This document shows, piece by piece, positions 943 through 23,329 of a stretch of 23,329 nt of DNA (its first letter is position 1; each line of letters starts with the position of its first letter). The position numbers and the translations under genes were made by a program. The DNA is from an uncultured virus (IMG/VR IMGVR_UViG_3300044653_000122) (Duplodnaviria > Heunggongvirae > Uroviricota > Caudoviricetes), in IMG/VR virus record IMGVR_UViG_3300044653_000122. One strand, written 5' to 3'. The notes under the pieces are model-generated. The model made no database searches. It was not told the origin of the DNA and was given only the letters and a program-made list of their open reading frames with translations.

Positions 943-950
943 GCGGACAC

Positions 951-1506: not shown

Positions 1507-1513
1507 AACCCCC

Positions 1514-2235: not shown

Positions 2236-2241
2236 CTGGGA

Positions 2242-2517: not shown

Positions 2518-2520
2518 CCC

Positions 2521-3167: not shown

Positions 3168-3174
3168 AGAACCC

Positions 3175-3788: not shown

Positions 3789-3847
3789 GGGAGAAGTATT
3801 ACACCGATGCTGGACGCCCACAGCTCTTCCGTGGTAGGCAAATCCCC

Positions 3848-4787: not shown

Positions 4788-4802
4788 ACCCTGACTTGAA
4801 AC

Positions 4803-5372: not shown

Positions 5373-5381
5373 GTCCCGTAC

Positions 5382-5711
5382 CTACACCGAATCCTTCGTC
5401 ATCAGCTCGCTCACACACTGAACGCAACAAACCTTCGGCTTCTTGTCGAGCTGCACGTACTTCCCGTAGGCATCGTTCGACATCGCCATCGGGCTCTGAC
5501 ACCCGATGCACAACACCTCGGGCCGTACCGCACTCCGGTTCGCCTCCAACTCCCAAAGCACGTTGTCCGCCGGATCAAAATCGGCCGCCCGCGTGCATAC
5601 CAACATCACGCTCTGATCGACCTCATGCGTCTGCACCCCCAGACGCCCAACCATCTCCGCCAACTGCCGCCGAAACTCCGGCCGGTCCGCCGCCGTAGGC
5701 CTCCGCCTCAT
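5382..5711 (-). CDS. hypothetical Cys-rich protein (CxxC...CCxxC)
   Basis: ORF track; GGAGG upstream of the ATG. Confidence 0.7.
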   Translation of the reverse strand: MRRRPTAADRPEFRRQLAEMVGRLGVQTHEVDQSVMLVCTRAADFDPADNVLWELEANRSAVRPEVLCIGCQSPMAMSNDAYGKYVQLDKKPKVCCVQCVSELMTKDSV

Positions 5712-5746
5712 CCAATTACCCTCCGCTCCCCGTGTACTACACCGAT

Positions 5747-6298
5747 TTAGCTAGCGTGATCAGGAAGCGCCGGAACGGCCCGGGCCGCCGGCAGGGCAGC
5801 AAACGTCTCCACAACCCCGCGGATGTGCTTGCACTGGTGGCGGCGGTAGATCCAGTCCTTGCACGAACAGGCACACTTACGCCCATCCTCACTCTGGAAG
5901 GAAACAACGTAGGGGGCCGACTCCCCGTCATCCTTCGTAACCTCGAAACGGCGGATATCCTGGCGACGCTTCGGCTTCGTCTCCTCGACGAGGTAGCTCT
6001 GGCCCTTGAGAAGCAGGGTCGTCTGGGCCGGCGTCTGGCGGACCATGGGGATGACGACGGCGTTCCGGCCGATCCGGACCGCGTAGTACTCGCCCCCGCG
6101 CTTGGCATGGAAAACTTCCAGGCCTAGCTCCGTGATTTTCAACACGCCGTTGGGGGAGGCGTGGACGAGAGCGAAAGGACCCTTGACCTCCACCACGTGG
6201 CAGAAGGGCTCCATGGCCCGGATGTTCTCGTCGGCCGACCTCGTGGAAGGAAAGTAGACCGGGAAGAGCGACTGCGTCGTGGTGAGATCCGTTCCCAT
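5747..6298 (-). CDS. SWIM zinc-finger domain protein
   Basis: CSCKDWIYRRHQCKHI matches the SWIM CxC-xn-CxH pattern. Confidence 0.8.
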   Translation of the reverse strand: MGTDLTTTQSLFPVYFPSTRSADENIRAMEPFCHVVEVKGPFALVHASPNGVLKITELGLEVFHAKRGGEYYAVRIGRNAVVIPMVRQTPAQTTLLLKGQSYLVEETKPKRRQDIRRFEVTKDDGESAPYVVSFQSEDGRKCACSCKDWIYRRHQCKHIRGVVETFAALPAARAVPALPDHAS

Positions 6299-6365
6299 GC
6301 GCCTTCTACAGGCGGACCAGGGAGAGATCAAAGTTATGGGTACATCTCTCCCCAGTCCTCGACGC

Positions 6366-6560
6366 TCATCGTCTCTCCTGGACGCACGCCAAGGCGTGCG
6401 GGTTGAACGTCACGTGCCACCACGCAGCAAGCACAGCGTGCCACCTCCACCTGAACTCGCCCAGCACAAGCGGCGCCCGGAACACGCTCGGCGAGACGAC
6501 GACCCGCCAAGGCATCCTTCGATGAGCCCAGCCGAGATCAGCTCGGCGGTAGACGCTCAC
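6366..6560 (-). CDS. hypothetical protein (64 aa)
   Basis: ORF track; start overlaps the upstream stop. Confidence 0.5.
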   Translation of the reverse strand: MSVYRRADLGWAHRRMPWRVVVSPSVFRAPLVLGEFRWRWHAVLAAWWHVTFNPHALACVQERR

Positions 6561-6778
6561 GGGACCCTAGGCGCGGCGCTCGCCTCCTCGGCCTCTTCCT
6601 CCGCCGGCTGGTCATACCGTCGAGCCACTCCGTCCCCGATCTCACGACCCCACCTGGCAGCCCACTGCTCCGCTTCCTGCCGGGTGCCCACCCAGTCGCC
6701 GTCATCCCCTAGCAACCAATGGGGCGGGACCTTGCCCCCATTGCCCTGAAACCACACGCCCCACCTCTCGTCGCTCAT
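6557..6778 (-). CDS. hypothetical protein (MSDERWG..., 73 aa)
   Basis: Internal ATG of ORF 6557..7159 with GAGGGTGAG upstream. Confidence 0.6.
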   Translation of the reverse strand: MSDERWGVWFQGNGGKVPPHWLLGDDGDWVGTRQEAEQWAARWGREIGDGVARRYDQPAEEEAEEASAAPRVP

Positions 6779-6875
6779 CTCACCCTCACTACCCTGAATT
6801 ACACCGCACCGAAACACCCGGAGCAAACTAAATCCCAGGTTTTTTTTGAGACCGGCTCCGGTGTAGCCCTCCTCC

Positions 6876-7664
6876 GTGCAACCCGGGGAACACGTCGCCA
6901 TCTTCGCCGCCGACGCCGAAGCCGGCCTCGAAGGTCGCCGCCTCGGTCTTGAGCTGCGAGACACGATCCTCGTGCTTTCGCACGGCCCCAAGTTGAGCTT
7001 CGTGTTCCTCTTCCGCAAACCACTGGATGGGACCGTGGCCGAGCAGATGGTTAAGACGGGGACGGGCGGCTTGAATGTGGACGCGTGCAGGATCGGCACG
7101 GCCGCCGCCGACGCCAAGGCCATGGAAAGGGCCAACACGCCGGGAAGCGGCCAACTCAAGGCGCACGATGCCGGGTTCCGAGGGGCATGGTCGGGCTCGA
7201 CGCCCTACGACACAACGGCCGGGCGCTGGCCACCGAACGTCGTCCTCGTGCACGGGCTGGGGTGCAGGATGATGGGAAATCGGCGCATCCTGACTGGAGG
7301 GAGCGGGGTAGCCGCGACCGTGCACGCATCGGCTGGCTATCAAGGCTCTTCTTTGGGGAGGGACTCCCGTGAGGACGGGAATTGCCACCGAAACGACGAT
7401 GGCACTGAGACCGTAGCCGCGTGGGAGTGCTCCCCAGGGTGCCCGGTGCCGTTGCTCGATGAGCAGAGCGGGGATCGACCCTCGACCGGCCCCCATCCGT
7501 CAAGCGTCCGTGGGGAAAGCATCCTCCGGCCAGGGCAAGGGGCATATCAACGACAGGGCCAGCTTTACGCCGACTCGGGTGGCGCCTCCCGGTTCTTCCC
7601 ACAGTTCAGGGACGAAGCGGAGCTACGCGCCTGGATTGAGCGCTTGATCTCGCCGATCCAGTAA
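6876..7664 (+). CDS. truncated phage-type N6/N4 DNA methyltransferase homolog (catalytic motifs absent)
   Basis: RKPLDGTVAE, GTGGLNVDACRI, GRWPPNV and DSGGASRFF resemble phage MTase inserts; no DPPY or FxGxG motif. Confidence 0.7.
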   Translation: MQPGEHVAIFAADAEAGLEGRRLGLELRDTILVLSHGPKLSFVFLFRKPLDGTVAEQMVKTGTGGLNVDACRIGTAAADAKAMERANTPGSGQLKAHDAGFRGAWSGSTPYDTTAGRWPPNVVLVHGLGCRMMGNRRILTGGSGVAATVHASAGYQGSSLGRDSREDGNCHRNDDGTETVAAWECSPGCPVPLLDEQSGDRPSTGPHPSSVRGESILRPGQGAYQRQGQLYADSGGASRFFPQFRDEAELRAWIERLISPIQ

Positions 7665-8055
7665 CAAAGGATCTCGGTCCTCCACTCCACGGGACCAAAA
7701 TTTCCATGCCCCCACCCCGAAATTCGGCCGTAAAAAAAATCGGACCCCCACCCCCGGATACGGCCTCCACAAAAAAGGGACCCCCTCGAAACAAAATCCG
7801 GGGGAAATTCAGGAGCCTAGGCCGCTTCCTCCGGAAGGGAGCGGAAAGAAACCCTCAAAACCAGAAGGCAGGGGGGACCAGGAAACAACAGGAAGGGGGA
7901 CCAGGGGCAATTACCGCTGTACTGGAACTCACCGTGCGAGGTGTCCGTGTATACTGGATGGGCCAAATTTGCTCCGTCGGGCCGGCCTGAAAGTTAATCG
8001 AGCGGTTTCATGCCAACTCGATCATGACGCGTCGAGTTGAAGCACCGCATCAACT

Positions 8056-8081
8056 TTGATCTTCAGACCCCTCGGATGTAT
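8056..8081 (+). promoter_or_regulatory. TTGATC-N14-ATGTAT motif copy (degenerate)
   Basis: ATG 10 nt downstream. Confidence 0.5.
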
Positions 8082-8091
8082 TCATGCCAAC

Positions 8092-8322
8092 ATGAGCACT
8101 CGGGCCCGGAAGCGTCGCAGAGCCCGACGGAAGCTTAACCGGCTCACCCTTGATGAGGCCATCCGAGATGTGGGCTACGGATTCCTCATGGGGTGCGAGG
8201 AGTCCGACGTTCGGGCCGAGCTGGTGAGGCGTGGGTTCGTAAGGGCGGATGCTTTTCTTCTCACGATCGCTGGACAGCTCTTGGCCCGATGGATCGAGGA
8301 AATCCCGGGGGAGGGTCCTTGA
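8092..8322 (+). CDS. hypothetical protein with Arg-rich N-terminus (76 aa)
   Basis: ATG after the motif; stop inside the next motif. Confidence 0.65.
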   Translation: MSTRARKRRRARRKLNRLTLDEAIRDVGYGFLMGCEESDVRAELVRRGFVRADAFLLTIAGQLLARWIEEIPGEGP

Positions 8323-8344
8323 TCGGGGGCCGTGCCAAGTGTAG
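8319..8344 (+). promoter_or_regulatory. TTGATC-N14-GTGTAG motif copy
   Basis: ATG 7 nt downstream. Confidence 0.75.
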
Positions 8345-8351
8345 GGGGATC

Positions 8352-8765
8352 ATGAAGACCATGGACGGGCAGACCCTCAAGATCGGCGACACCATCCTGA
8401 CGAGCTACCACGACATTCCCGTCGTCGGCGTCATCAATGGGTACGACGGCTCCGGCTGCATCTACCTGAGCTTCCCCGGCGCCCTCCCCCAGCCCGTCGT
8501 CTATGGCATCCCCCGCGACGGCATCTGCCTCCACTACTACGACGTGCCCCACACGGTCGCCCACCTGGTCAGCCGCCCCACCGAGCTGCCCGAACTCTTC
8601 GAGCTGCCCGCGACGTGCGTCGGCGGCTGCCACGCCCGCAAGCCGCAGGGTCCCTCGCTCACCGAGGTCGAGACCGCCGGCAAGGCCGCTGTGGCCCGAA
8701 GGGATCAGAAGGGGGCAGCAGCCCTCCGCACTGTGTATCGGGCCCTCCGGAGCGCCCAGGCGTGA
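8352..8765 (+). CDS. hypothetical protein (MKTMDGQT..., 137 aa)
   Basis: Internal ATG of ORF 8193..8765 following the motif. Confidence 0.75.
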   Translation: MKTMDGQTLKIGDTILTSYHDIPVVGVINGYDGSGCIYLSFPGALPQPVVYGIPRDGICLHYYDVPHTVAHLVSRPTELPELFELPATCVGGCHARKPQGPSLTEVETAGKAAVARRDQKGAAALRTVYRALRSAQA

Positions 8766-8770
8766 CCTCC

Positions 8771-8983
8771 ATGAAGAAAATTGCACTTTCCCCAGGAACG
8801 ATGGGCCTCTGCGCCCTTGCAATCGACTTGGTGGGCGTCGACAATGTGGACCCCGGGCACTGGCTTTCTCCCGTCTACATTCTCACAGAGAGGCTCTCCC
8901 AAGAGGATCTCCAGGCTGCCATCGAGCTGATCCAGGAGCGTGGCCGTGAGGTCAACATGCCGATTTCGGTGACCCGGCTTTGA
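8771..8983 (+). CDS. hypothetical protein (70 aa)
   Basis: ATG 5 nt after the upstream stop; stop inside the next motif. Confidence 0.65.
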   Translation: MKKIALSPGTMGLCALAIDLVGVDNVDPGHWLSPVYILTERLSQEDLQAAIELIQERGREVNMPISVTRL

Positions 8984-9005
8984 TCTTCTCCTAGCTCGAT
9001 TGTAG
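8980..9005 (+). promoter_or_regulatory. TTGATC-N14-TTGTAG motif copy
   Basis: ATG 7 nt downstream. Confidence 0.75.
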
Positions 9006-9012
9006 AGCCTCC

Positions 9013-9156
9013 ATGAAGACGAAGAAGCTCCCGGCCCGCCCCGCCCTTGTCATCCGCGACATGATCATCAACGGGCACGGGAACACCACGATGAAGCACA
9101 AGAACGACCGCCGGGCCAAGGACGCCCGCAAGTCCTGGAAGAACGAGGCTTGGTGA
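9013..9156 (+). CDS. small basic protein (47 aa, MKTKKLPARP...), not in the ORF track
   Basis: Manually translated from the ATG 7 nt after the motif. Confidence 0.7.
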   Translation: MKTKKLPARPALVIRDMIINGHGNTTMKHKNDRRAKDARKSWKNEAW

Positions 9157-9188
9157 TCCCCATGACCCTCCACCGGATGTACCAGAAC

Positions 9189-9428
9189 ATGACGGGGGAG
9201 GTCGAGGAGGCTAAGGAGGCCCTGAGGGTGTCCACCTTGGTGAAGGGGGCTCTTGAGGCCCTTCCTGGGAGCCAACTACTCCTCTCCGATGTGGCCTTCC
9301 TGACGGGCCTCTCTAAGGCAGAGATCCAGGGAGCCCTCGATGACGAGACCCTCGTTCACGCCCTCGGTGTGGCCTCTATCGAATACAGCCCAGAGACGGG
9401 CATCATCACGATTGGCCCCGAGGAGTAG
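9189..9428 (+). CDS. hypothetical protein, possible helix-turn-helix
   Basis: LSDVAFLTGLSKAEIQGAL is HTH-like; start uncertain (9162, 9177 or 9189). Confidence 0.55.
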   Translation: MTGEVEEAKEALRVSTLVKGALEALPGSQLLLSDVAFLTGLSKAEIQGALDDETLVHALGVASIEYSPETGIITIGPEE

Positions 9429-9568
9429 GCCTCTTACTCTTCGATCTTCACCCCAGGACCGAAGAGGAGAACCAGAACCGCTGCTCTCAAGAACTCGCCC
9501 ACACGCCTCATCGTGCCCATGGTGACAAGATAGCGGCGTCGAGGTGTCACGCAAGTTACACCTTTACC

Positions 9569-9594
9569 TTGATCGGGAGCCCCCTCGGCTGTAG
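9569..9594 (+). promoter_or_regulatory. TTGATC-N14-CTGTAG motif copy with no ORF downstream
   Basis: Identical over 26 bp to the copy at 10039-10064 (reverse strand). Confidence 0.7.
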
Positions 9595-9760
9595 GGGGTA
9601 CAAGCGTTGAGCTGACTCCACGGGGGCTCCAGCCAGCGAGAGAAGGCACGCTTCGGGGGAATCTACCCAGGGGGTCGGGTTGAGAACGGATCTCCCCGAA
9701 GCGCCCCTACTCCGTCCGGCTCCGCCCGTCTGTCGGGCCCCACCGCCCGCTTCACCTCTC

Positions 9761-9786
9761 CTACAGTCGAGGGGGCTCCCGATCAA
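9761..9786 (-). promoter_or_regulatory. TTGATC-N14-CTGTAG motif copy with no ATG downstream
   Basis: 25/26 match to the 9569 copy, inverted. Confidence 0.7.
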
Positions 9787-10031
9787 ACCGGGGCCACCCA
9801 AACCTTGTCCCCGTCGATCATCGAGGGGACCAGCCCGAGCTTCGCGAGTTTCTTGGCGCAGGTCTTACAGGTCGGGCCCACGTGGGAGGCCTCGCACATG
9901 TCGTCCAGGACGTGCTCCGGCTTGACCCGGCACTGGGGAACCGTTCCCTCAATGGCGACCAGGTGCGTGAGGCACGAGGTCAGGGTCTTGTAAGAGCTGG
10001 CAGCGAGGGGGAGCACAGCGTAGGTCGTCAT
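9783..10031 (-). CDS. hypothetical Cys/His-rich protein (82 aa)
   Basis: ATG 7 nt after the motif; CKTC; stop inside the next motif. Confidence 0.7.
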   Translation of the reverse strand: MTTYAVLPLAASSYKTLTSCLTHLVAIEGTVPQCRVKPEHVLDDMCEASHVGPTCKTCAKKLAKLGLVPSMIDGDKVWVAPV

Positions 10032-10038
10032 GCTTTTC

Positions 10039-10064
10039 CTACAGCCGAGGGGGCTCCCGATCAA
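10039..10064 (-). promoter_or_regulatory. TTGATC-N14-CTGTAG motif copy
   Basis: ATG 7 nt downstream. Confidence 0.75.
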
Positions 10065-10369
10065 ATAAAGTCTGCCTACGCCGCGCCTTGATGGTCGTCC
10101 CCTGCCCAGGTGGGACCCCGTCAACTGTCCGTCAACGCACAGCTTCCGGCTCATGCCCCGGAATTGACCGGGCGTTGACGGCCTTTGCTCCCAGGTGGCC
10201 CACGGGTGGCCTGGCAACCCGGGAGTAAGACCCTTTCGAACGAACGACAGGTCCCGAACCAGAACCGCAGCCCGGTGTAACGCGATCCTAGAAGGCAAGA
10301 TCGTGGTAGGTACACCGAGGAGGACAGGAGAGCCCTCGCATCACGGTTGCACCAGAATCAGCGGGCCGG

Positions 10370-10717
10370 TCAGTACCCCATCTTCCGCTCTTCGCGGCAG
10401 CTCTGGCACTCGCCGTTCCGAACCCAGTCTCCCACGAGGAAGCCACGGGCGTTCCGGCGCTCGACGGTGCCACAGACCCGGCACTTCTTGTCCGCCCCGA
10501 AGCACTTGTAGCACGTGGCGAAACCGGGTTTGCAGGGGCCGCCGCACTTCCCGCAGGTGCCCTCCGTGCGAGGGGCCGCAGCGGGGGCGTCAGCCGAGAC
10601 CGCAGAGCAGTCGACGTGCGACGCCTTCTCCCCCTTGTTCCACTCCACCTTGGAACCGACTGCGATCGGCTTGCTGCACTTGGGGCACGTCGAGGGAAAC
10701 TTGGCAGTGATGATCAT
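10370..10717 (-). CDS. multi-CxxC zinc-ribbon protein (115 aa)
   Basis: CPKC, HVDC, CGKC, CYKC, CRVC, CQSC. Confidence 0.75.
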   Translation of the reverse strand: MIITAKFPSTCPKCSKPIAVGSKVEWNKGEKASHVDCSAVSADAPAAAPRTEGTCGKCGGPCKPGFATCYKCFGADKKCRVCGTVERRNARGFLVGDWVRNGECQSCREERKMGY

Positions 10718-10724
10718 GGTCCCC

Positions 10725-10750
10725 CTACAGCCCTGGGGGCTCACGATCAA
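10725..10750 (-). promoter_or_regulatory. TTGATC-N14-CTGTAG motif copy
   Basis: ATG 7 nt downstream. Confidence 0.75.
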
Positions 10751-10772
10751 AGCTCATCTGTGCATTGAGACC

Positions 10773-10813
10773 AAAAAACAAGAGGGGCCCCCAGGCACAC
10801 CTAGGGACCCCTC
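10773..10813 (-). terminator. intrinsic terminator
   Basis: Minus strand GAGGGGTCCCTAGG-TGTG-CCTGGGGGCCCCTC followed by TTGTTTTTT. Confidence 0.75.
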
Positions 10814-10843
10814 GGTGCTGCTGAGGGAGTTCAGGCTGGGGCC

Positions 10844-11155
10844 TCAGTCGGCCACTGCGTCCGAGTAGGCCCGGAGCCCGTGCTTGGTCAGCTCCGTCGC
10901 GATGACCTCGGCCCGAGCGAGAGCTTTCCCATCGGCGTTGTCGTAGCCCACGTAGAGGGCGTTGCCTGACGTTCCGTATGCCTTCTTGAGGAACATGAGG
11001 CCCTGGGCCTTGCACGCCTCTGCGAAGGCCTTGATCTCCTCGCGGGTGCCGCTCACGCACACGTAGGCCCGACCACAGCCAGACGAGCGCTGGGGAGTGT
11101 ACGGGGCAGCCATGGCGGTCCTGAGAGCGTCGGCGATCTGAGTCTTGGTGGGCAT
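10844..11155 (-). CDS. hypothetical protein (103 aa)
   Basis: ORF track; motif upstream, terminator downstream. Confidence 0.8.
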   Translation of the reverse strand: MPTKTQIADALRTAMAAPYTPQRSSGCGRAYVCVSGTREEIKAFAEACKAQGLMFLKKAYGTSGNALYVGYDNADGKALARAEVIATELTKHGLRAYSDAVAD

Positions 11156-11162
11156 GGGCCCC

Positions 11163-11188
11163 CTACAGCTCGGCTAGGCGAAGATCAA
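11163..11188 (-). promoter_or_regulatory. TTGATC-N14-CTGTAG motif copy
   Basis: ATG 7 nt downstream; divergent from the 11282 copy. Confidence 0.75.
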
Positions 11189-11281
11189 AACCGGCCCTCA
11201 AGGACGTACCAAGGCGCCCCTCCGAAAATGGCACTTTGCGGGGGTGGCCCCCGCGAAACGAGCCCTCCCACCCCTTTCTTT

Positions 11282-11307
11282 TTGATCGTGAGCCCCGCCG
11301 GCTGTAG
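11282..11307 (+). promoter_or_regulatory. TTGATC-N14-CTGTAG motif copy
   Basis: ATG 7 nt downstream. Confidence 0.75.
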
Positions 11308-11314
11308 GGGAGAC

Positions 11315-11449
11315 ATGAACAACATCAAGAAGGCGCTCAAGGCGGTTCGTGCGAACCGCGCCCACAACGGCCGTAAGGCTGAGATGAAGAAGTTCCTCGT
11401 TCGTGCTGAGCGTCGTCTCAGCCGCGCTCTCAGCCGCGTTCAGAGCTGA
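11315..11449 (+). CDS. small basic protein (44 aa)
   Basis: MNNIKKALK... starting at the motif-linked ATG. Confidence 0.7.
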   Translation: MNNIKKALKAVRANRAHNGRKAEMKKFLVRAERRLSRALSRVQS

Positions 11450-11472
11450 ACCAAGAAAAGCGCTGTCCCGGT

Positions 11473-11498
11473 TTGATCGTGAGGCCTCTCACCTGTAG
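11473..11498 (+). promoter_or_regulatory. TTGATC-N14-CTGTAG motif copy
   Basis: ATG 7 nt downstream. Confidence 0.75.
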
Positions 11499-11505
11499 GA
11501 GAGAC

Positions 11506-11763
11506 ATGAACACGGCGACTGACTTCGAGCCCCTCTTCGCTCGCGTCGAGGAGATGATCAAGACCCACGGCAAGTTCGCGGTGGCCCCGGGTCATACCCT
11601 CAGATTCACGGTGAACCGCTACGGGTGGAGCGTGGACATCCTCGTGAAGCTCGTGGGAAGCCGCAAGCGGGCGACCGAAATTTGTGGGCGGGGGGATACG
11701 GCTGAGGAGGCCGTCGAGAAGCTGGGGCAGTCGCTCGACCACTGGGCGACCGTCTGTCGTTAA
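11506..11763 (+). CDS. hypothetical protein (85 aa)
   Basis: Motif-linked ATG; GRGDTAEEAVEKL resembles the HicB-like GxTxEEA motif. Confidence 0.75.
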   Translation: MNTATDFEPLFARVEEMIKTHGKFAVAPGHTLRFTVNRYGWSVDILVKLVGSRKRATEICGRGDTAEEAVEKLGQSLDHWATVCR

Positions 11764-11786
11764 AAAGGGAGCGCCCGATTTTCTTT

Positions 11787-11812
11787 TTGATCGAGAGCCT
11801 CCTCGGTTGTAG
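11787..11812 (+). promoter_or_regulatory. TTGATC-N14-TTGTAG motif copy
   Basis: ATG 7 nt downstream. Confidence 0.75.
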
Positions 11813-11819
11813 AGGGAAC

Positions 11820-12098
11820 ATGAAGACGATTGCTGCTCCCGCCACGATGACCGCCGAAATGCTCTCCAAGGTCAACGGCTCGGCCACAGTGAAGGCGTAC
11901 GTCGAGAGCTTCAACAACGTCTCGTACATCCAGCGCGCGGTCTTCCAGGGCTTCAAGACCGGCTACATCGTCCGGGCAACCTCGTTCGCGATGCAGCACA
12001 TCTGCAAAAATGCGGGCTTCCAGGCCGACCCCATCGAGGTCCACGACGAGACCTTCGGCGACGCCACCTGGCACATCTACCGTCCTGTTGCTGCTTGA
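11820..12098 (+). CDS. hypothetical protein (92 aa)
   Basis: Motif-linked ATG; stop inside the next motif. Confidence 0.75.
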   Translation: MKTIAAPATMTAEMLSKVNGSATVKAYVESFNNVSYIQRAVFQGFKTGYIVRATSFAMQHICKNAGFQADPIEVHDETFGDATWHIYRPVAA

Positions 12099-12120
12099 TC
12101 GGAAGGAGCCCCTGTTGTAG
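12095..12120 (+). promoter_or_regulatory. TTGATC-N14-TTGTAG motif copy upstream of the tRNA-like RNA
   Basis: No ATG follows; tRNA-like 5' end is 18 nt downstream. Confidence 0.7.
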
Positions 12121-12138
12121 AAGGGGCACATCCGATAC

Positions 12139-12241
12139 GGGGTCGTAAGTCTCAATGGCGGGCCAAGGTGGCCAACGTAACCCGCAAGGCAGAGCTGGTG
12201 TCCGAAAGGCCCGGTTGCCGGTTCGATTCCGGTCGACTCCA
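12139..12241 (+). ncRNA. tRNA-like RNA with Ala-type acceptor stem and T arm, non-canonical D and anticodon regions
   Basis: GGGGTCG pairs with CGACTCC (G3-U70), discriminator A; T arm GCCGG-TTCGATT-CCGGT. Confidence 0.65.
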
Positions 12242-12242
12242 C

Positions 12243-12401
12243 AAGTCTCGATCACGCCACCCGCAAACGGCGTACGGCCCCCTTGGCTGGGGGCATGGGT
12301 GAGAGCGGCCCAGCGGGGACATGGATTTGGTCAGCGCGTATAAAACTCCGGGAAGAGCGCGTACCCCGGGACCTCCCCATGCCAGGCGTGCTTCGAGACT
12401 T
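12243..12401. ncRNA. candidate structured RNA
   Basis: Closing stem AAGTCTCGA/TCGAGACTT plus CACGCC/GGCGTG enclosing several GC hairpins. Confidence 0.45.
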
Positions 12402-12406
12402 CTCTT

Positions 12407-12432
12407 TTGATCGGGCCGCACACAGGCTGTAA
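12407..12432 (+). promoter_or_regulatory. TTGATC-N14-CTGTAA motif copy
   Basis: ATG of an 11-codon ORF 7 nt downstream. Confidence 0.7.
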
Positions 12433-12495
12433 AGAAGACATGCAAAGGAGGACGGACATGAAGCTCGCCAGCTAAGACATCTGACTTTCGACGGC

Positions 12496-12540
12496 GAAGG
12501 CCCCCACGGGATGAGTACAAACCTGGGGGCCTTTCTTTTT
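12496..12540 (+). terminator. probable intrinsic terminator
   Basis: GAAGGCCCCCA...TGGGGGCCTTTC followed by TTTTT; long loop. Confidence 0.55.
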
Positions 12541-12564
12541 GATCGGCAGCCTCCTGAACTGTAG
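12539..12564 (+). promoter_or_regulatory. TTGATC-N14-CTGTAG motif copy
   Basis: ATG 7 nt downstream. Confidence 0.75.
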
Positions 12565-12571
12565 AGAAGGC

Positions 12572-12751
12572 ATGAGCACAACGATCGTTCGACTGGAAGA
12601 CGCGGATCGCTGGGTGACCTTCGAGATGAACACGCGCTTCGCCACGATGCGTAACTCGCTCGGAGAGAAGGTGCTCCTCTGTCGGGACGACGCGGAAAAT
12701 AGGATCAAAACCCTCCGCAACGCAGGATGGCAAGAGACCAAGACCTCCTAG
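12572..12751 (+). CDS. hypothetical protein (59 aa)
   Basis: Motif-linked ATG. Confidence 0.7.
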   Translation: MSTTIVRLEDADRWVTFEMNTRFATMRNSLGEKVLLCRDDAENRIKTLRNAGWQETKTS

Positions 12752-12759
12752 GAGTTACC

Positions 12760-13122
12760 ATGAGCCACGAACATAGCGTCCCGGGCACCCTCGGCCTGAG
12801 TGACTGGCACAAGGCTGATTCCAAGACTGCCCACATCTCCTACTACGGACGTACTGCCAAGGAAACGGATGTCGTCCTTGTGCGTGACTGGGAGCTTCGT
12901 GTAGGAGATCGGAAGGTCGTCGTCGGTCGCGCCATCGAGGTGATGACGTGGCGGGACTACGGGGATGTCTACTTCGAGGCTGCGTTCATGCTGCCAGGAC
13001 AGACCTCCGATGAAGGGGCCCCCATTCCCGGTGCCCAACGAAGCTCAAGGGAAACCCTGGATGACGTGAAGCGTCAGGTCGACCTCATGGTTCCTTGGCT
13101 CATCCAAAAGGTCGCCCCATGA
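12760..13122 (+). CDS. hypothetical protein (120 aa)
   Basis: AGGAG upstream of ATG 12760. Confidence 0.7.
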   Translation: MSHEHSVPGTLGLSDWHKADSKTAHISYYGRTAKETDVVLVRDWELRVGDRKVVVGRAIEVMTWRDYGDVYFEAAFMLPGQTSDEGAPIPGAQRSSRETLDDVKRQVDLMVPWLIQKVAP

Positions 13123-13624
13123 ACACCATTCACCAACACCGCATGAAGTGGTACGTCGACGGGTGCCGCGTCCTCCACGAAGACCCAGGGAGCATCGCCC
13201 CCTGCCACTGGAAACTCTCCCCGAAGCCCAGCCCGGCTGCCATCCAGAAGGACGGTTGTCGGGCGTTCGCCTTTCAAATCCTCGACCCCGACGAGGCTAT
13301 CGACTACCTGCGTCAAAGGCATTGCTGCGGCATCCTCTTCACGAGCCAACCCATCCAGTTCGGAGCGTTCCCCTCCGGTTGGGCCTGGATCAACAACGAT
13401 GCTCTGCCCCCGGTGAGGTCTCTTGGGCCGCCCGCTTCGCCTTCCCCTTCGAGCGCCGGGGCGTCACACGCGTTCTCGGGAAGGGCATTGAGCAAGACGG
13501 AGCCAAGCTCTCCTCCAGCACCGGCATCGGCGTGCCGTACGGAACTCCACGCCATGTGGTTATCCGACGCAATCACGCTGACAGAATCGCTGAAGCGTTG
13601 GGTGCCTACAAAGCATGGATCTAA
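13119..13624 (+). pseudogene. hypothetical gene apparently frameshifted at the C5 run 13407-13411
   Basis: Protein-like reading switches from the 13119 frame to the frame ending at 13624. Confidence 0.5.
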
Positions 13625-13788
13625 CACAACGAACTTGAGCGGGTCACGCTCCCATTCGTTGTGTTGCATAGCGTATACGTAGTGTATGCGCCGAATGGCT
13701 GAACCGTATGGCTGGCCATTCCTATACACTACTGAACGCGAGCTTGAGCGGGTCACGTTTCTGAACAGTATACGAGAACAGTATTCCT

Positions 13789-13974
13789 ATGCGCCTTCGA
13801 CTGCCCCCTGAGGACGAGAGAAACGCTCGAAACGAGCCCTTCGGCGAGTGGTTGGCCCAGATGACGGAGGGCGGAGGCCCCATCACTCTCACGCCTTCTG
13901 TCATCAACCGTGCGGTCGATGTGTGGCGTTCCAATGGTGACCCGAAAGCATTCCGTAGGAGCCTAGGCAACTGA
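13789..13974 (+). CDS. hypothetical protein (61 aa) between repeat copies 2 and 3
   Basis: ORF track; fills the gap between repeats. Confidence 0.55.
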   Translation: MRLRLPPEDERNARNEPFGEWLAQMTEGGGPITLTPSVINRAVDVWRSNGDPKAFRRSLGN

Positions 13975-14128
13975 ACACAACACAATCGAACTTGACCGAG
14001 TCACGTTTCTGAACAGTGGTCTAGGATTCTATTACACGCCCGAGCTTGACCGAGTCACGTTCTTGCTCAGTAGTGTAAGCCCCCGAGTTCCTCTCGTCAG
14101 ATCCATCCCCGTCAGACGTGGTGAGGGT

Positions 14129-14365
14129 ATGAGCCACCTCCCCCGTATCCCGCGACCCTCTGTCCTCCCCCGGGTCATCATGGACTTCTGCGTAGCCGAG
14201 GTGGACGCCGGCCAGGACCCCCTCACGTCATGGGACACCGATTCGACCGACCCCACCGACCTCATCCGCGTCCGCTACTCCGACCGAGAGGACGTGTGGA
14301 TTCGCGTGCTCGCCGCCAACCCCCGTGGCTACACCTGGGTCCGCTCCGCAGGTCTCTCCCGCTGA
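14129..14365 (+). CDS. hypothetical protein (78 aa)
   Basis: Internal ATG (MSHLPRIP) of ORF 14063..14365. Confidence 0.6.
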   Translation: MSHLPRIPRPSVLPRVIMDFCVAEVDAGQDPLTSWDTDSTDPTDLIRVRYSDREDVWIRVLAANPRGYTWVRSAGLSR

Positions 14366-14375
14366 CTATCCCCTC

Positions 14376-14401
14376 TTGATCGAGAGGTCCCCCGGTTGTA
14401 A
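14376..14401 (+). promoter_or_regulatory. TTGATC-N14-TTGTAA motif copy
   Basis: ATG 7 nt downstream. Confidence 0.7.
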
Positions 14402-14408
14402 AGGGGGC

Positions 14409-14609
14409 ATGGTTACCAGCACGCTCATCCAGGGGACCCCGACCGAGACCCGCCACGCCCGCCTCTACGCCTGCGCCCTCTCGGAAGTGGCCCGCCTCGA
14501 AGCCGCCCAGGCCGCCGGCTGGGATGTGGCTGCGGACCTCTCCCGTGAGCGCGCCCGGGTGAAGGCGTTCGCCCCCAAGACAAACGCGAGCTTGACCGAC
14601 TCACGTTAG
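14409..14609 (+). CDS. hypothetical protein (66 aa)
   Basis: Motif-linked ATG. Confidence 0.65.
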   Translation: MVTSTLIQGTPTETRHARLYACALSEVARLEAAQAAGWDVAADLSRERARVKAFAPKTNASLTDSR

Positions 14610-14854
14610 AAACAACTACCCCCTGACCCCCACAAGAAAGGGGCCCGGGGTTCTTCCACACGGTTGTCTTGAAGCCCTCGCTCTCTCCCGTCTGGTCTGC
14701 TGTCCCGCTATTGGCTCCACGCGAGGGGCTCCACAAGGGACGCCCGGGAACCGGAGAAGCTCGCCTCTGATCGAGAACGCGGCCTTCAACCTAGGGCTCT
14801 ACCATCAAAGCTCTATGACTCCATAGAACCCTTTGAACTTGAGCGAGTCATGTC

Positions 14855-14880
14855 TTGATCCTCTGCCCCCTGGACTGTAG
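14855..14880 (+). promoter_or_regulatory. TTGATC-N14-CTGTAG motif copy heading the recombinase operon
   Basis: ATG 7 nt downstream; 2 bp after the last 18-bp repeat. Confidence 0.75.
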
Positions 14881-14887
14881 AGGACGC

Positions 14888-15040
14888 ATGGACCTCGCTG
14901 CCCTCAAAGCCCGCGCTAAGGAACTCTCTCGCACCCTGGGCCGGATGCCTGAGTCCAAGGCCAGCGAGTCAGACAGAGCCGCCGTGCGTCATGAGCTGGC
15001 GAAGGTCGAGGCGAAGATCCGTGAGCTGGAGGCCAAGTGA
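14888..15040 (+). CDS. small helical/coiled-coil protein (50 aa)
   Basis: Motif-linked ATG; GTGA overlap with the recombinase start. Confidence 0.7.
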   Translation: MDLAALKARAKELSRTLGRMPESKASESDRAAVRHELAKVEAKIRELEAK

Positions 15041-15873
15041 CCGCCCCCGACCTCTCGGGCGCCCAGAACGATGTCCACCTCGTCCAGCTCTGGCTCGCCC
15101 AGCGGCCCGAAACGACCCGGCGGGTCTATGCCCCCGTAGCAGAGGAGTTCCTCAAGGGGCTGACCATCCGAGAGCTTGACGCAGCGCAGCTCATCGCATG
15201 GTCCGAGGCTCTCCAGGGGGAGCCGTCCACCCGATCCCGCAAGGTGAGCACCATCAAGAGCCTCCTGACCTTCGCGTGGAGGACCGGCTACACGCTCCAC
15301 AACGTCGGCCGCGTCCTCCGCTGCGTCCCCATCCCTTCCAAGGTCGCAGAGCGCATCCTGGAGGAGCCCGAGATGGCCCTGCTCTTCGCAGGGGCCCCCG
15401 AGGGACGGGACCGGACCTTCCTCCGCCTCATGTACGCTACGGGAGCCCGCGTCTCCGAGCTGTGCAAGCTCCGCTGGGTGGACTTCGCTCAGCCTGGCAG
15501 GATGACCGTCCTCGGCAAGGGGGCCAAGAAGCGCACCCTCCTGGTCCCCCAGGCCATCCTCACCGAGGTCCAGAGACTCAAGCCGGCGGGAACGCTCCCC
15601 ACGGCCTTCGTCTTCGTGTCCAAGCGCAACCCCACCAAACCCCTCGACCCCAGGGATGCCAGGGAGATCGTTTACCAAGCCAAGCGGCGGTCTAAACTCG
15701 ACCGCAAGGCTTCCCCTCATGTACTTCGCCATTCACACGCGACGCACAGTCTCGACCATGGATGCCCCATCCACATCCTTCAGCAGTCTATGGGCCATGC
15801 ATCCGTCGCTACGACCTCTGTCTACCTTCACGTTCGCCCGAACAAGGGGTCTTCCACCTACATCAAAATCTGA
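15037..15873 (+). CDS. tyrosine recombinase/integrase, XerC/D-like (278 aa)
   Basis: Complete catalytic set: TGARVSE (R), GKG (K), HVLRH (HxxR), MGH, SVY (Y). Confidence 0.95.
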   Translation: MTAPDLSGAQNDVHLVQLWLAQRPETTRRVYAPVAEEFLKGLTIRELDAAQLIAWSEALQGEPSTRSRKVSTIKSLLTFAWRTGYTLHNVGRVLRCVPIPSKVAERILEEPEMALLFAGAPEGRDRTFLRLMYATGARVSELCKLRWVDFAQPGRMTVLGKGAKKRTLLVPQAILTEVQRLKPAGTLPTAFVFVSKRNPTKPLDPRDAREIVYQAKRRSKLDRKASPHVLRHSHATHSLDHGCPIHILQQSMGHASVATTSVYLHVRPNKGSSTYIKI

Positions 15874-16364
15874 CGCAAAAGCTCCGCGGATAACTCCGAG
15901 GGGGCTTTGGCACGGGAATTTCCCTTACCTGGACGGAAATACCGTGCCCAATTTGCGTGCCAGAATTTCGCGTCGATGATCGAGCGGGGGCTTGGCATCT
16001 GACCATCAGCGAGCGTCCCATCACCCGGTTATTGGGAGGGCCCCCTGCCCCTTTGCTCGGTTTGTCTGCTTGCTGTTTGCTGTGGTTGGGAGGGAGGGCG
16101 TGAGGGACGGGGCCCCCTGGGGGGCTGTCCTTGCTTGCTGTTGAAGACGGTGCATTCCCGGAGAGGCGCTCTCCGTGGTCTTGCTAGCCTGGGGGCTTAC
16201 GGCACGGCTTGTCCCCAGGGGAGGCCCGTTGAGCTTTGGAGGGTCCTGCCCCCTTGGTTTGGCGGTTGTGGTTTGGCCTGTAGGGGAGGATGAGCTGTTG
16301 ACGGGTGTCCCCCGGTCCCTCGGGCCCCCTGTGGGCCTTTCCTGTCTTCCCTGCCTGGATGGTT

Positions 16365-16390
16365 TTGATCGGCCGTCCTCTTGGTTGTAG
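16365..16390 (+). promoter_or_regulatory. TTGATC-N14-TTGTAG motif copy
   Basis: ATG 7 nt downstream. Confidence 0.75.
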
Positions 16391-16397
16391 GAGGGTT

Positions 16398-16631
16398 ATG
16401 GCTACGGACCGTATCGAGTACCAAGCGAAGCTTGCCCACAAGAATGCCAAGGCCAAGTGGGGTGATGGCTGGCGGTTTCTCTCCAGGGAGCAGCGGGAGG
16501 GGGCTGTAGCGCTCCAGATCGTGGCTCTTTTGGTGGGTCAGGACGAGGAGAGCGCTTCTCCGGGAGTGCGTCGTCTTCAGCGGATTGCCGAGAGTGCGAT
16601 GGGGCTTGTCGCTTCGCCGAGCGAGGTTTGA
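16398..16631 (+). CDS. hypothetical protein (77 aa)
   Basis: Motif-linked ATG. Confidence 0.7.
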   Translation: MATDRIEYQAKLAHKNAKAKWGDGWRFLSREQREGAVALQIVALLVGQDEESASPGVRRLQRIAESAMGLVASPSEV

Positions 16632-16812
16632 GCTAAGGGGTCTGAGCCCTTTGTTTCCGGCTCTTCACCTGGTCTGTGGGTTCCCTGGGCCCGGGGTTGA
16701 GCTGTTTGTTTGGCTTTCCTGGGTGGAGGTTGGGAGGGCCCCATCTGTGGGCTTTTCTTCTGCTTCTGCTTAGAGCAGAGACGCTGCCCCCGCCCTGGTG
16801 TAGAAGCCCATC

Positions 16813-17010
16813 GTGGACCCGTGGGATGATACCGAGGACGAGTGGACCGAGCGGATCAAAGCAGCTCATCCGTCGAGGAGCGGCTCCCACGAGGAGTACG
16901 CCACGGCTATGCGCATGGTCGGCAACAGGCGGTCGAAGGGGGCGCTGGTTGAACTCGTGAACTGGCTCCTCGTCGAGAACAAGAAAAGGCCCTCAGCTCC
17001 TCGAACCTAG
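16813..17010 (+). CDS. hypothetical protein (65 aa)
   Basis: ORF track; TGGTGTAG 9 nt upstream. Confidence 0.65.
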   Translation: MDPWDDTEDEWTERIKAAHPSRSGSHEEYATAMRMVGNRRSKGALVELVNWLLVENKKRPSAPRT

Positions 17011-19778: not shown

Positions 19779-20147
19779 GAACGTGTCTCCCGCCGCATAT
19801 ACCATCCTCCGGGGCCGCGTTTCCAGTTGGCGAAGCCAGCCTTTTCGTGGGTTTTCCTTGATGCGTCGTTCGTGTCTGGAATGAACGCGACGCACACCCG
19901 CTCTGGGTGAGAGGCGTAGTAGGCTTCGACGAGGCCCTTTCCGCGGTAGTCCGGCAGGACGAAGATGGGGCCGTGGCGCCAGCCCATCTTCGTTTCATGG
20001 GGCGTCACGAAGCCCACGACCTTCCCCCCTATGAAGGAGGGCTTCCCGCCGTTTGCTACACAGGAAGACCCGTCCTCGGAGGCCAGGCTCCTGCATCGCG
20101 AGACGAACGATCTCCTCCGGGATCTCCGGCGACTTTACAGACCCCAT
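19775..20147 (-). pseudogene. GNAT-family acetyltransferase, split by a frameshift at the C6 run 20024-20029
   Basis: IFVLPDYRGKGL (motif A) and NDASRKTHEKAGF (motif B); N-terminal part lies in another frame. Confidence 0.65.
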
Positions 20148-21382
20148 TTGGCCCTTCGTTTCCTCATGATTTTCCGATAGTTTTCGTACGAGGTTTCGGA
20201 ACTCCTCTGTTGGGAGAAGCCCAACCTTCGGCACATCCGGTCATTGAGAAGGATCGTCTTCGCTACGCGTCTCCACGTGGGGGCTTTTCGTTTAGCCTCG
20301 ACGTCGTAAGGCGCCTCGTCGATCATCTCCATCCCGCGTTTCTCCCGCCACCACTGGCGGTGGACCGCGATCTTGTTCTCAAAGTGTTCCCGTTCTCCAG
20401 CCGGGAGCGAGTCGAGCAAGAACCGGACATAGCTTTCCCAGGTCGGGTGGCTCTTGGGGAGCGTGACATGGCCGTTACCGAGGATATTCCCCCGCTTCCC
20501 CGCGTAGATCGCCCCGTAGTTTGCACCCACGACACGAGCGACGACTTTGTTCCAGGTCTCTGGCTCGATCACGTGCCACATGGCGAGCCCACGCCGCTGG
20601 TCGTCCCCGTACGGTTGGCAGATGCGCATGAGGTGGATGGAGAGGCCCGCCTTGTACATCGCGTCGTAGAGAGGGGGGTAAGGGAGCTTCGTCTTCCCGT
20701 AGTACGTCCAAACGTCCTCTGTCGCCCAGTCGAAGATGGGGTAGACGTTGAAGAGCCCTCCGCCCTTCCAGGCGGTCCACGCCTTTCCCTCCAGGCGACT
20801 CTTCCGATCTCGGGCGATGGCCCGCCAGCGATTGAGGCTCTCTCCGGTGCGAATCCCGACGAGGCAAGCCGTTGCTTCGTCTCCCCCATACCAGTGACCG
20901 AAGAACTCCACGAATTCCTCGAATTCCTGTGCACAGCGCTTGCCTTCCTTGTTGGTCCAGGGGGGGACGTAGAAGGGGTAGCGTGTTCCGTCGACGGTGG
21001 CTACGGGGGGAGGTTCCCGGATCCACTGTTCCCGGGCCTCGGGATCCCAACAGACCCAATAGGGTTGGGCCATGGATACGGCGTTCCGGAGGTGCAGCGG
21101 AAGGGCTACCCAGTGTGGATCGATCACATCCGCATAGAGTCGGAACATTTCTTGGACGAATGCGATCGTCGAAGCGTACTGCCCCTCAAGATCGACATAG
21201 AGGACGCCCACCTTCCGGCCCCGCCGTCTCGCCTCTTGGCAGGTGAGGTGCATCATCACGCCGGAGTCTTTCCCCGACGGTCCAGAGAGGTAGACCTTCG
21301 GGAAGGTGTCAAACGTCCAGGCGATGCGCTCCTTGGCGGCTTGGAGGACATCGATTCCGAGGGAATGCTTGGCGACCTTCAC
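20135..21382 (-). CDS. ibrA: IbrA/YbdN-like PAPS-reductase-fold protein (DUF3440), 415 aa
   Basis: SGKDS loop, YVDLEGQY, LVGIRTGESLNRW, YPIFDW, MRICQPYG, APTWRR. Confidence 0.92.
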   Translation of the reverse strand: MKVAKHSLGIDVLQAAKERIAWTFDTFPKVYLSGPSGKDSGVMMHLTCQEARRRGRKVGVLYVDLEGQYASTIAFVQEMFRLYADVIDPHWVALPLHLRNAVSMAQPYWVCWDPEAREQWIREPPPVATVDGTRYPFYVPPWTNKEGKRCAQEFEEFVEFFGHWYGGDEATACLVGIRTGESLNRWRAIARDRKSRLEGKAWTAWKGGGLFNVYPIFDWATEDVWTYYGKTKLPYPPLYDAMYKAGLSIHLMRICQPYGDDQRRGLAMWHVIEPETWNKVVARVVGANYGAIYAGKRGNILGNGHVTLPKSHPTWESYVRFLLDSLPAGEREHFENKIAVHRQWWREKRGMEMIDEAPYDVEAKRKAPTWRRVAKTILLNDRMCRRLGFSQQRSSETSYENYRKIMRKRRAKWGL

Positions 21383-22002
21383 GGCTCCATCTCCGAGAGC
21401 GTTGGAGGAGACTCAGGATCAAACAACCGGAGCGCTTCTTTCTGCGTCAGCCGCACGATCCGATCCCCCTCGACAGTGAGAAGTTTGCGGTCGCCCTTCT
21501 CCCCCACCTCGTACACCCGGCCCGGCCAGAGACGGTAGTGACGTTTGCCATCGACGACGACCCAGCCGAGTCGACGGGGCGTTCCGAGACCAGCAACTTC
21601 GGCGACCCAGGGACGATCATCGGGATCATCCCGTACTTCGAGGACTCTTGCCGGTCCGGCGGCACCTTCGGCGATAGCAAGCGCTTCGTCGGGAGTTCTC
21701 TCAATCATCCGACCCCCGATCAGGGAGTAAAACTCGCGAGCGACGTATCGTTTGCTCGATTTTCCACGGCATCGACTCACCTCGTAGAGGTTACCGTCGT
21801 GGAGGGGGAAGGTTGCGACGACACCGTACAGGTTACCGCTCCATGCCGCGTGGGCGTTCTTCCAGTCGTTCATCGCCTTGACGAATTCTCGTCGGAGCCC
21901 GAACCGTTCCGGATCGACACCGACGATCTTGGCCACCCACGGCTTTGGGGGCGGCCCGCCGTGGAAGTGGCCGTCGATCTCGATCTTGTACATCTTGAGC
22001 AT
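21379..22002 (-). CDS. hypothetical protein with duplicated PWVA..G motif, first gene of the ibr operon
   Basis: KPWVAKIVG and RPWVAEVAG; stop overlaps the ibrA start. Confidence 0.8.
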   Translation of the reverse strand: MLKMYKIEIDGHFHGGPPPKPWVAKIVGVDPERFGLRREFVKAMNDWKNAHAAWSGNLYGVVATFPLHDGNLYEVSRCRGKSSKRYVAREFYSLIGGRMIERTPDEALAIAEGAAGPARVLEVRDDPDDRPWVAEVAGLGTPRRLGWVVVDGKRHYRLWPGRVYEVGEKGDRKLLTVEGDRIVRLTQKEALRLFDPESPPTLSEMEP

Positions 22003-22872: not shown

Positions 22873-22994
22873 TCATATCTCCAGGCTAAGTTGGCCACGC
22901 TCAGCCCTGAACAGCTCGCCTCTGAGGTGCGCTGGTGCGGGGATGGGCGGGGCGGAGTCGTCTTCTGACTCGATTTCCTCGAAGAAGACTATGT

Positions 22995-23323
22995 GTGGCG
23001 ACCCAGTCTCGATCGATCATGGTTTGCCACGATCCGGCAGATCGACACCTCGGTGTATCTACAGCTGTGGCGACCCAGTTCCGATCGATCATGGTTTGCC
23101 ACCCCTCGTGTGGCTCGGTGACGAACTCGCACACCCAATAGTGGCGACCCAGTTCCGATCGATCATGGTTTGCCACCTCCTGAGATGGCTCCCGTGATCG
23201 TCCCTGAGTTGACGGTGGCGACCCAGTTCCGATCGATCATGGTTTGCCACGGGTGATGACCTTGCGGCTCCTCGAAGGAGACGCTGAGTGGCGACCCAGT
23301 TCCGATCGATCATGGTTTGCCAC
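22995..23323. CRISPR. CRISPR array, 36-bp repeat GTGGCGACCCAGTTCCGATCGATCATGGTTTGCCAC, 5 repeats and 4 spacers, truncated by the window end
   Basis: Repeats at 22995, 23067, 23141, 23215, 23288; unique spacers of 36, 38, 38, 37 nt; first repeat has 2 substitutions. Confidence 0.95.
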
Positions 23324-23329
23324 CGCCCA

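Follow-up and report, generated by a model that had tools for sequence, protein, structure and literature searches.

Introduction

Phage and plasmid operators are often imperfect dyads in which the arms are conserved and the centre is variable. In sets such as lambda OR/OL and the KorA/KorB operators of RK2, a single element carries these short imperfect palindromes at several of its promoters or intergenic regions. Repeats of similar appearance are also found in other systems. The iterons of lambda, P1 and F are ~19 bp long, directly repeated and partly palindromic, and in an iteron-type origin phased direct-repeat arrays are accompanied by an initiator gene and an AT-rich region. In shufflons (Rci recombinase, 19-bp sfx repeats), inverted repeats bound invertible coding segments, whereas in integrons small genes are parted by repeated sites beside a tyrosine recombinase gene. 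Among simpler tyrosine recombinases, Xer, Cre and Flp sites are typically 28–34 bp. The TnpI/IRS system of Tn4430 has core motifs only 4 bp apart, with additional direct motifs that bind further (regulatory) recombinase subunits (PMC2847244). For T4-type phages, shuffling of small genes together with promoter/stem-loop (PeSL) cassettes has been described (PMC2839356). Here, a family of six short repeats was analysed in a 23,329-nt stretch of DNA (hereafter the window) from an uncultured virus (IMG/VR record IMGVR_UViG_3300044653_000122), in which the repeats lead into an operon encoding a tyrosine recombinase. A first-pass annotation had read the repeats as binding or crossover sites of this recombinase with an integron-like logic, keeping operators or replication iterons as a fallback. 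We tentatively favour a different emphasis, namely that the six repeats may be paired operator or activator sites of one sequence-specific DNA-binding protein.

Results

Six oriented repeats form a local family

A 19-nt motif, CGARCTTGASCGRSTCAYG, was present in six + strand copies starting at 13630, 13739, 13987, 14041, 14587 and 14834. The first-pass annotation had located all six correctly, in one orientation and as semi-palindromes, with each copy here starting one base earlier. A repeat finder delimited the family to 13630–14852, with spacings of 109, 248, 54, 546 and 247 nt. Exact matches to a degenerate 15-mer, CTTGASCGRSTCAYG, occurred at 13634, 13743, 13991, 14045, 14591 and 14838, all on the + strand. 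With up to two mismatches, seven matches were obtained in the window as compared to a mean of 0.97 in 100 dinucleotide-preserving shuffles, none of which (0/100) reached seven; the seventh match (8134, two mismatches) is no more than expected by chance. Scored with a weight matrix derived from these copies, the six reached 32–39 bits, whilst the next best site in 23 kb, on either strand, scored 12 bits and the peaks in 20 shuffles were 6–18 bits. Pattern and weight-matrix scans of both strands found no further copies of the 19-nt motif elsewhere in the 23-kb window. The six repeats are a real, locally clustered family of cis-elements that is confined to 13.6–14.9 kb. A motif scan of viral contigs produced eight single matches, which were taken as chance, and blastn of 13000–16000 against phages and plasmids gave no match.

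Thirteen of the 19 positions were invariant across all six copies, with diverged flanks. The dyad core given by the first-pass annotation (TGA-S-CGR-S-TCA) was correct. When the six copies were aligned, the symmetry widened to an imperfect 7-5-7 palindrome in which the arms are conserved and the centre varies, the central five bases being GCGGG in copies 1 and 2, CCGAG in copies 3 and 4, CCGAC in copy 5 and GCGAG in copy 6. As the reverse strand of a copy scores merely 12 bits, the site is clearly oriented. Copies 2 and 3 have in common the exact 18-nt stretch GTCACGTTTCTGAACAGT, bearing out the extended similarity claimed for this pair, and 17 nt are shared by copies 3 and 4 of the window. 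The flanks are mosaic, with left flanks common to copies 1 and 3 and to copies 2 and 5, and right flanks common to copies 2 and 3. RNA folding of six 71-nt windows yielded no common fold; a strong hairpin was obtained for one of the six (z-scores from +0.5 to -3.6).

The copies are paired ahead of three small transcription units

The copies are arranged in pairs, i.e. (1,2), (3,4) and (5,6). Three consecutive intergenic gaps hold a pair apiece, always ahead of a small transcription unit, the last of which consists of a 50-aa open reading frame (ORF) and the recombinase gene. Copy 1 (13630..13648, +, core GAGCGGG) starts 5 nt past the stop codon at 13624 and occupies the loop of a hairpin with an 11-bp stem (13623–13665, z = -3.57). 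After a 90-nt spacer comes copy 2 (13739..13757, +, core GAGCGGG), whose dyad centre lies 39 nt before the ATG of a 61-aa ORFan (13789..13974, +). Copy 3 (13987..14005, +, core GACCGAG in the window) starts 12 nt past the stop at 13974 and, with copy 2, brackets the 61-aa ORF as originally described. A 35-nt spacer separates it from copy 4 (14041..14059, +, core GACCGAG), which is upstream of an ORF at 14129–14365 (+) whose database calls start at 14180. The gap that follows this ORF (14366–14408) contains no copy and holds only the standard start cassette that heads the next ORF (14409–14609, +). Copy 5 (14587..14605, +, core GACCGAC) falls within the final codons of the latter, in agreement with the earlier observation that copies 1, 3 and 5 sit at gene ends. 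Between copies 5 and 6 there is a 228-nt non-coding stretch ahead of copy 6 (14834..14852, +, core GAGCGAG), which ends 2 nt before the TTGATC of a start cassette (14855..14887, +) heading the recombinase operon. The ATG at 14888 follows the dyad centre of copy 6 by 43 nt, such that the distances from dyad centre to start codon are 39, 77 or 128, and 43 nt. The operon begins with a 50-aa coiled-coil-like ORF (14888..15040, +), coupled by a GTGA stop/start overlap to the GTG start (15037) of a 278-aa Xer-like tyrosine recombinase (15037..15873, +); both the abutment of copy 6 on the start motif and this coupling had been recognised in the first-pass annotation. Flanking the repeat region is another family of short words, GTAGTGTA(T) plus its complement (13679–13687, 13724–13735 and 14067–14077), which includes an exact 11-nt inverted pair (13725–13735/14067–14077) just outside copies 2 and 4.

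Protein-binding control sites account best for the dyad with its conserved arms and variable centre, for the pairing within intergenic gaps and for where copy 6 lies relative to the start cassette. A dyad in intergenic placement is part of what would be looked for in an operator set, together with a cognate DNA-binding protein. Copy 6 touches the -35-like TTGATC box of the start cassette of the recombinase operon. Activators that overlap a -35 box centre ~41.5 nt upstream of the transcription start. The cognate protein, probably a dimer, would read the TGA-N5-TCA dyad within an oriented site of 19–21 bp, and the sites would control three adjacent small units, i.e. the 61-aa ORF, ORFs 14129–14609, and the 50-aa ORF with the recombinase. 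Protein binding, control of transcription and joint action of the two sites in a pair are all predictions from sequence. The gene for such a protein may lie on another part of the 147-kb contig; alternatively, the recombinase may bind the sites and regulate its own operon.

Several points weigh against paired operator or activator sites. Searches of Pfam, PHROGs and the Atlas found no DNA-binding protein among the small ORFs nearby, and no -10-like element recurs at a fixed distance from the copies. For the 61-aa ORF, no Pfam or PHROG match and no usable Atlas match was obtained, and a search of 1.84 billion representatives returned no relative, only weak repeat-like matches. Its single-sequence model was all-helical with low confidence (predicted local distance difference test score of 65), and a Foldseek search of this model against the PDB gave nothing at E <= 0.001, leaving a low-confidence fold without a structural match. 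A guess that it might be a ribbon-helix-helix protein was unsupported as the model is all-helical. The uniform orientation and asymmetry of the sites fit promoters, iterons or excision sites at least equally well, and one distant relative (L170, below) has private repeats solely around its recombinase gene, a sign that such repeats may go with the recombinase and not with a regulator. The uniform orientation, the asymmetry and the failure to find a binding protein hold our confidence down. As compared to the lambda and RK2 operator sets, the six repeats are alike in being short imperfect palindromes with conserved arms in several such regions of one element, but differ in having a single orientation and no cognate repressor found nearby, in the location of one member of each pair at the end of the preceding gene, and in a within-pair spacing of 54–247 bp.

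A separate gene-start cassette and the case for promoters

The cassette that heads the recombinase operon, TTGATC-N15-TGTAG-N7-ATG, is found ahead of many small ORFs. A permissive regular expression gave 22 matches in the window (range 917–16390, both strands; e.g. 11282–11317, 12539–12574, 14376–14411, 14855–14890 and 16365–16400), with the ATG exactly 7 nt past the second box in 15 of them; these 15 span 1.4–16.4 kb and occur on either strand. Several cassettes follow a T-run terminator hairpin, at least one of them directly (12495–12545, z = -4.24). Among the matches listed for viral contigs, the gene-start pattern gave single chance matches.

The repeats could themselves be promoters, i.e. 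oriented elements of a second class, differing from this cassette, that a sigma factor, activator or RNA polymerase of the element would recognise. All six copies are oriented with transcription and are asymmetric, their 5' half (CTTGASC) is similar to the TTGATC box, and the genes following copies 2 and 4 are without the standard cassette. However, it would be unusual for promoters to occur twice in a gap, once right where the preceding gene ends; neither a conserved downstream element nor a fixed distance to the start codon is present; copy 6 is upstream of a complete standard cassette; and a sigma-70 consensus scan found none. This explanation was judged to be improbable. Readings as sigma-70, extracytoplasmic function (ECF)-type, CRP/FNR-type or LexA-type motifs were dropped after comparison by eye, as the spacing or downstream elements misfit.

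Near-identical genomes differ in copy 3 and in a gene-start cassette

Contigs of four public runs, one of which is possibly the source of the window itself, were compared over 12500–17000. A variant in run X2 was 98–99% identical to the window, differing at 16/1913 and 37/1960 letters plus some gaps, and was collinear across all six copies. All copies were kept in place, although the non-coding stretch that separates copy 5 from copy 6 had acquired five substitutions and two indels, and the 61-aa ORF had two differences, both at third codon positions. The deletion or circle junctions between copies that the first-pass annotation had envisaged were not found in the contigs of the four runs, nor was an inversion joint at any copy; this is weak evidence as contigs drop rare forms. 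The sole joint in these contigs connects 16348 to 16516, with 20 other letters between.

In both X2 and X5, C13996G and A13999G give copy 3 the core found in copies 1 and 2, and copy 3 of X2 additionally has a 1-nt deletion at 13986. The X2 copy 3 is an exact chimera of 26 nt of copy 1 (left flank and core) and 27 nt of copy 2 (core and right flank). With copy 3 matching copies 1 and 2 in X2 and copy 4 in the window, the copies appear to exchange sequence on a recent time scale, by short-homology conversion or otherwise. This bears on a view of the repeats as leftover homologous patches of local duplications that have no dedicated function today and undergo occasional gene conversion or shuffling. 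The mosaic flanks, the toggling of the copy 3 core between near-identical genomes and the ORFan nature of the flanked genes in a plastic region are as expected for such relics. Against it stand the 13 positions that are invariant despite diverged flanks, and the regular placement of two copies per gap, which suggests selection; we consider this view very unlikely.

Apparent recent gain or loss of a gene was seen at a terminator–promoter cassette and not at the six repeats. Two X2 contigs end inside the cassette at 14389–14412 and continue into unlike sequence, one passing, after the ATGG common to both, into another coding sequence and the other entering from unlike sequence through a second cassette copy. 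These breakpoints are as expected of an extra gene bounded by two cassette copies; two strains in one run could look alike. Relative to the PeSL cassettes of T4-type phages (PMC2839356), the likeness is that ORFan genes are flanked by repeated regulatory cassettes with indels, which is true here of the TTGATC-N15-TGTAG cassette. The six 19-bp repeats, in contrast, are another motif, have no shared stem-loop and have no indel observed at them.

The gene preceding copy 1 (13119–13624) is apparently frameshifted in the window. In X2 and X5 an extra C follows 13406, such that frame 0 (from 13095/13119) continues into frame 2 (with its end at 13624). Misassembly, pseudogene formation or slippage could each account for the frameshift at the C-run ending at 13406.

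The recombinase is Xer-like and the relatives compared lack the repeats

The recombinase matched PF00589 (2.3e-32), placing it in the tyrosine recombinase superfamily with a full catalytic set. Its motifs ARVSEL, GKGAKKR, HVLRHSHATH and GHASVATTSVYLH align with the catalytic motifs of XerD, the catalytic residues were present on alignment to XerD and to an archaeal Xer-like structure, and R138, K161, H228, R231, H254 and Y263 were invariant across 27 sequences. The enzyme is a plain two-domain Xer-like recombinase without an arm-binding domain. Scores against the XerA, XerC and XerD models were 131.7, 128.7 and 124.8 bits versus cut-offs of 220, 335 and 330, respectively. A scan for dif-like sites (11-nt arms matching at >=10/11 positions, 6–8-nt spacer) detected a single site, at 18826, with nothing in the vicinity of the gene; shuffles gave 0–2 sites. 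An assignment as XerC, XerD or XerA acting at dif was rejected given scores below the cut-offs and no dif-like site near the gene. The integron integrase models were matched over two short stretches, with 78.7 bits versus 265 for TIGR02249 and 58.5 versus 435 for NF011946, and with these scores far below the curated cut-offs this 278-aa protein is not IntI-like. At 36 nt past the recombinase stop there is an inverted repeat (15909..15948, +; 15 nt and 14 nt with 11 nt between), which is most simply the operon terminator, the alternative being a core site of the recombinase.

Relatives of the recombinase at 60–74% identity exist, of which L081 (1 kb, 71% identical) was the close relative compared at locus level. 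In L081, the place of the 50-aa ORF is taken by an unrelated 53-aa ORF that preserves the CTGTAGGAG-N4-ATG start and likewise overlaps the start of the recombinase gene. This replacement makes a conserved directionality factor, as suggested for the 50-aa protein in the first-pass annotation, unlikely. Relatives at 40–51% identity were on IMG/VR records of 286–452 kb, one with terminal repeats, and had neither neighbouring genes nor the start cassette in common with the window; in five large IMG/VR relatives, searches for Terminase_6N and the gene-start pattern gave no matches. The nearest plasmid relatives sit on small plasmids. The 19-nt motif was absent from every locus obtained by recombinase similarity, and of 314 loci compared was present only in the eight taken from the motif scan itself. 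A private repeat cluster around the recombinase was found in one of seven relatives examined (L170, 46% identity) and in none of the other six. L170 has seven copies of its own motif, AAATGAGRGGTTTCC, in both orientations within 3 kb around the recombinase (4616–7550, i.e. record positions 274766–277692 of 286005), with a single match at two mismatches elsewhere in its 286 kb.

These results bear on whether the repeats are core or accessory recombination sites at which the adjacent Xer-like enzyme would excise or insert small cassettes. The copies are direct, lie next to the recombinase gene and have short palindromic inner arms around a 5–7-bp centre, an arrangement broadly like that of Xer-type sites. 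The exact chimera at copy 3 in run X2 and the L170 cluster also speak for recombination, and near the gene no canonical site with 11-nt arms and a 6–8-nt spacer competes. Conservation, however, extends over only 19–21 bp and the central bases are unequal between most copies. Tyrosine recombinases require matching central regions, leaving only copies 1 and 2 (109 bp) and copies 3 and 4 (54 bp) exchangeable in this genome, both of which would give non-coding circles. No rearranged form with a junction at any copy was seen in the contigs of the four runs, which would not show rare forms. The absence of the motif at loci obtained by recombinase similarity, the analogous cluster in only one of seven relatives, the score below the IntI cut-offs with repeats unlike attC, and the replacement of the 50-aa ORF in L081 also count against such a role, which we regard as unlikely. 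Comparison with TnpI/IRS (PMC2847244) reveals a recombinase gene near several short motif copies, some of them direct and accessory, and the 4-bp spacing there means that a short spacer is not disqualifying; IRS is, however, compact (116 bp) with an inverted core pair, whereas the present locus has six direct copies over 1.2 kb with genes between and no inverted pair.

An extension of this view would make the six sites and the enzyme a platform for cassette insertion and excision in a huge-phage-like or megaplasmid-like element. Integron-like logic would then arise from a plain 278-aa Xer-type recombinase and double-stranded sites of 19–21 bp, the copy 3 chimera of the sister genome would be a fossil of such exchange and the L170 cluster would represent the same system with different site sequences. 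We consider this highly improbable. The likeness to integrons lies in small genes parted by repeated sites beside a tyrosine recombinase gene; unlike integrons, the sites are 19–21 bp without attC folding and number two per junction, and the recombinase is co-directional and at the downstream end. The integron-like reading of the first-pass annotation is unsupported, with an enzyme that is not IntI-like, no attC structure, unequal centres, no joints and no motif beside relatives. An integron cassette array was discarded because the six copies share no attC-type fold and there are two repeats per junction and not one per cassette, and a shufflon because all six copies are on the + strand and none is inverted.

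A 33-nt inverted repeat (29/33 matching) was noted 270 nt downstream of the recombinase, at 16142–16174 and 16547–16579. Its arms are separated by 372 nt that include a start cassette and roughly 50 codons from the start of gene 16398–16631. Flipping 16175–16546 in silico kept the frame open into a 44-codon alternative end. The segment is a candidate invertible switch and a candidate substrate of the enzyme; the layout is like that of promoter-inversion switches situated beside their recombinase. No flipped form was present in the contigs of the four runs, and the flipped-form protein was not among two database matches, the only database relative of the gene (P0137, 74% identity) having the unflipped C-terminus. 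The X2 variant is without ~160 nt of this segment.

Iterons and the surrounding element

Replication iterons were the other part of the first-pass fallback, and centromere-like partition sites are considered here along with them. Like the iterons of lambda, P1 and F, the repeats are direct, roughly 19 bp and partly palindromic. The cumulative GC skew has its minimum 1–2 kb to the right of the repeats, at ~16 kb, and the occurrence of the nearest plasmid relatives of the recombinase on small plasmids is also favourable, multimer-resolving recombinases often being near replication and partition modules. Against this, the spacings (54–546 bp, with genes between) form no phased array, no Rep, ParA or ParB family match was obtained in the window and no AT-rich unwinding stretch was seen beside the copies. 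Whereas the operator part of the fallback is retained as the favoured reading, an iteron-type origin was rejected, with unphased spacings and no recognised initiator gene, and iterons or partition sites as a class are decidedly unlikely. The skew itself changes from -0.13 at 15–16 kb to between +0.16 and +0.20 at 16–18 kb (cumulative minimum ~16000). The switch falls in a ~500-nt non-coding stretch after the recombinase that is also variable in X2, and may be a replication landmark.

The recombinase protein is recorded from a 147-kb metagenome contig, and the runs containing this stretch include soil metagenomes, with no RNA dataset listed among them. The window is 59–65% G+C and rich in small ORFs without family matches, and scans with Rfam (gathering threshold) and for tRNAs found nothing. 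As large relatives share neither neighbours nor start cassette with it, the most apt description of the element is that it is large and either phage-like or plasmid-like. At the end of the window is a CRISPR (clustered regularly interspaced short palindromic repeats)-like array (22994–23329, running off the end) with five copies of a 36-nt repeat, GTGGCGACCCAGTTCCGATCGATCATGGTTTGCCAC, and spacers of 36–38 nt. The spacers had no match in the rest of the window (best 21–24 of 36–38 positions) and no cas genes were recognised within the window. One recombinase relative (L186) has a long array ~5 kb from its recombinase. Other genes include a 3'-phosphoadenosine-5'-phosphosulphate (PAPS) reductase plus DUF3440 protein (20135–21382, -; PHROG 2302, 3e-83), followed by a 207-aa ORF without an assigned family (21379–22002, -), a pair reminiscent of IbrA/IbrB, which is often found on phages and other mobile elements. 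An AlkB-like 2-oxoglutarate-Fe(II) oxygenase is encoded at 951–1484 and a SWIM zinc-finger protein at 5747–6298 (-).

Discussion

The six-repeat family is probably regulatory, and the finding is of modest interest. If the repeats are the recombination sites of the adjacent enzyme, they would exemplify gene-cassette capture by a simple Xer-type enzyme outside integrons and would bear on the turnover of small ORFans in huge phages and megaplasmids. If they are operators, as tentatively favoured here, they would constitute an ordinary local regulon of a large soil element, the recognition of which would aid annotation and the finding of its regulator.

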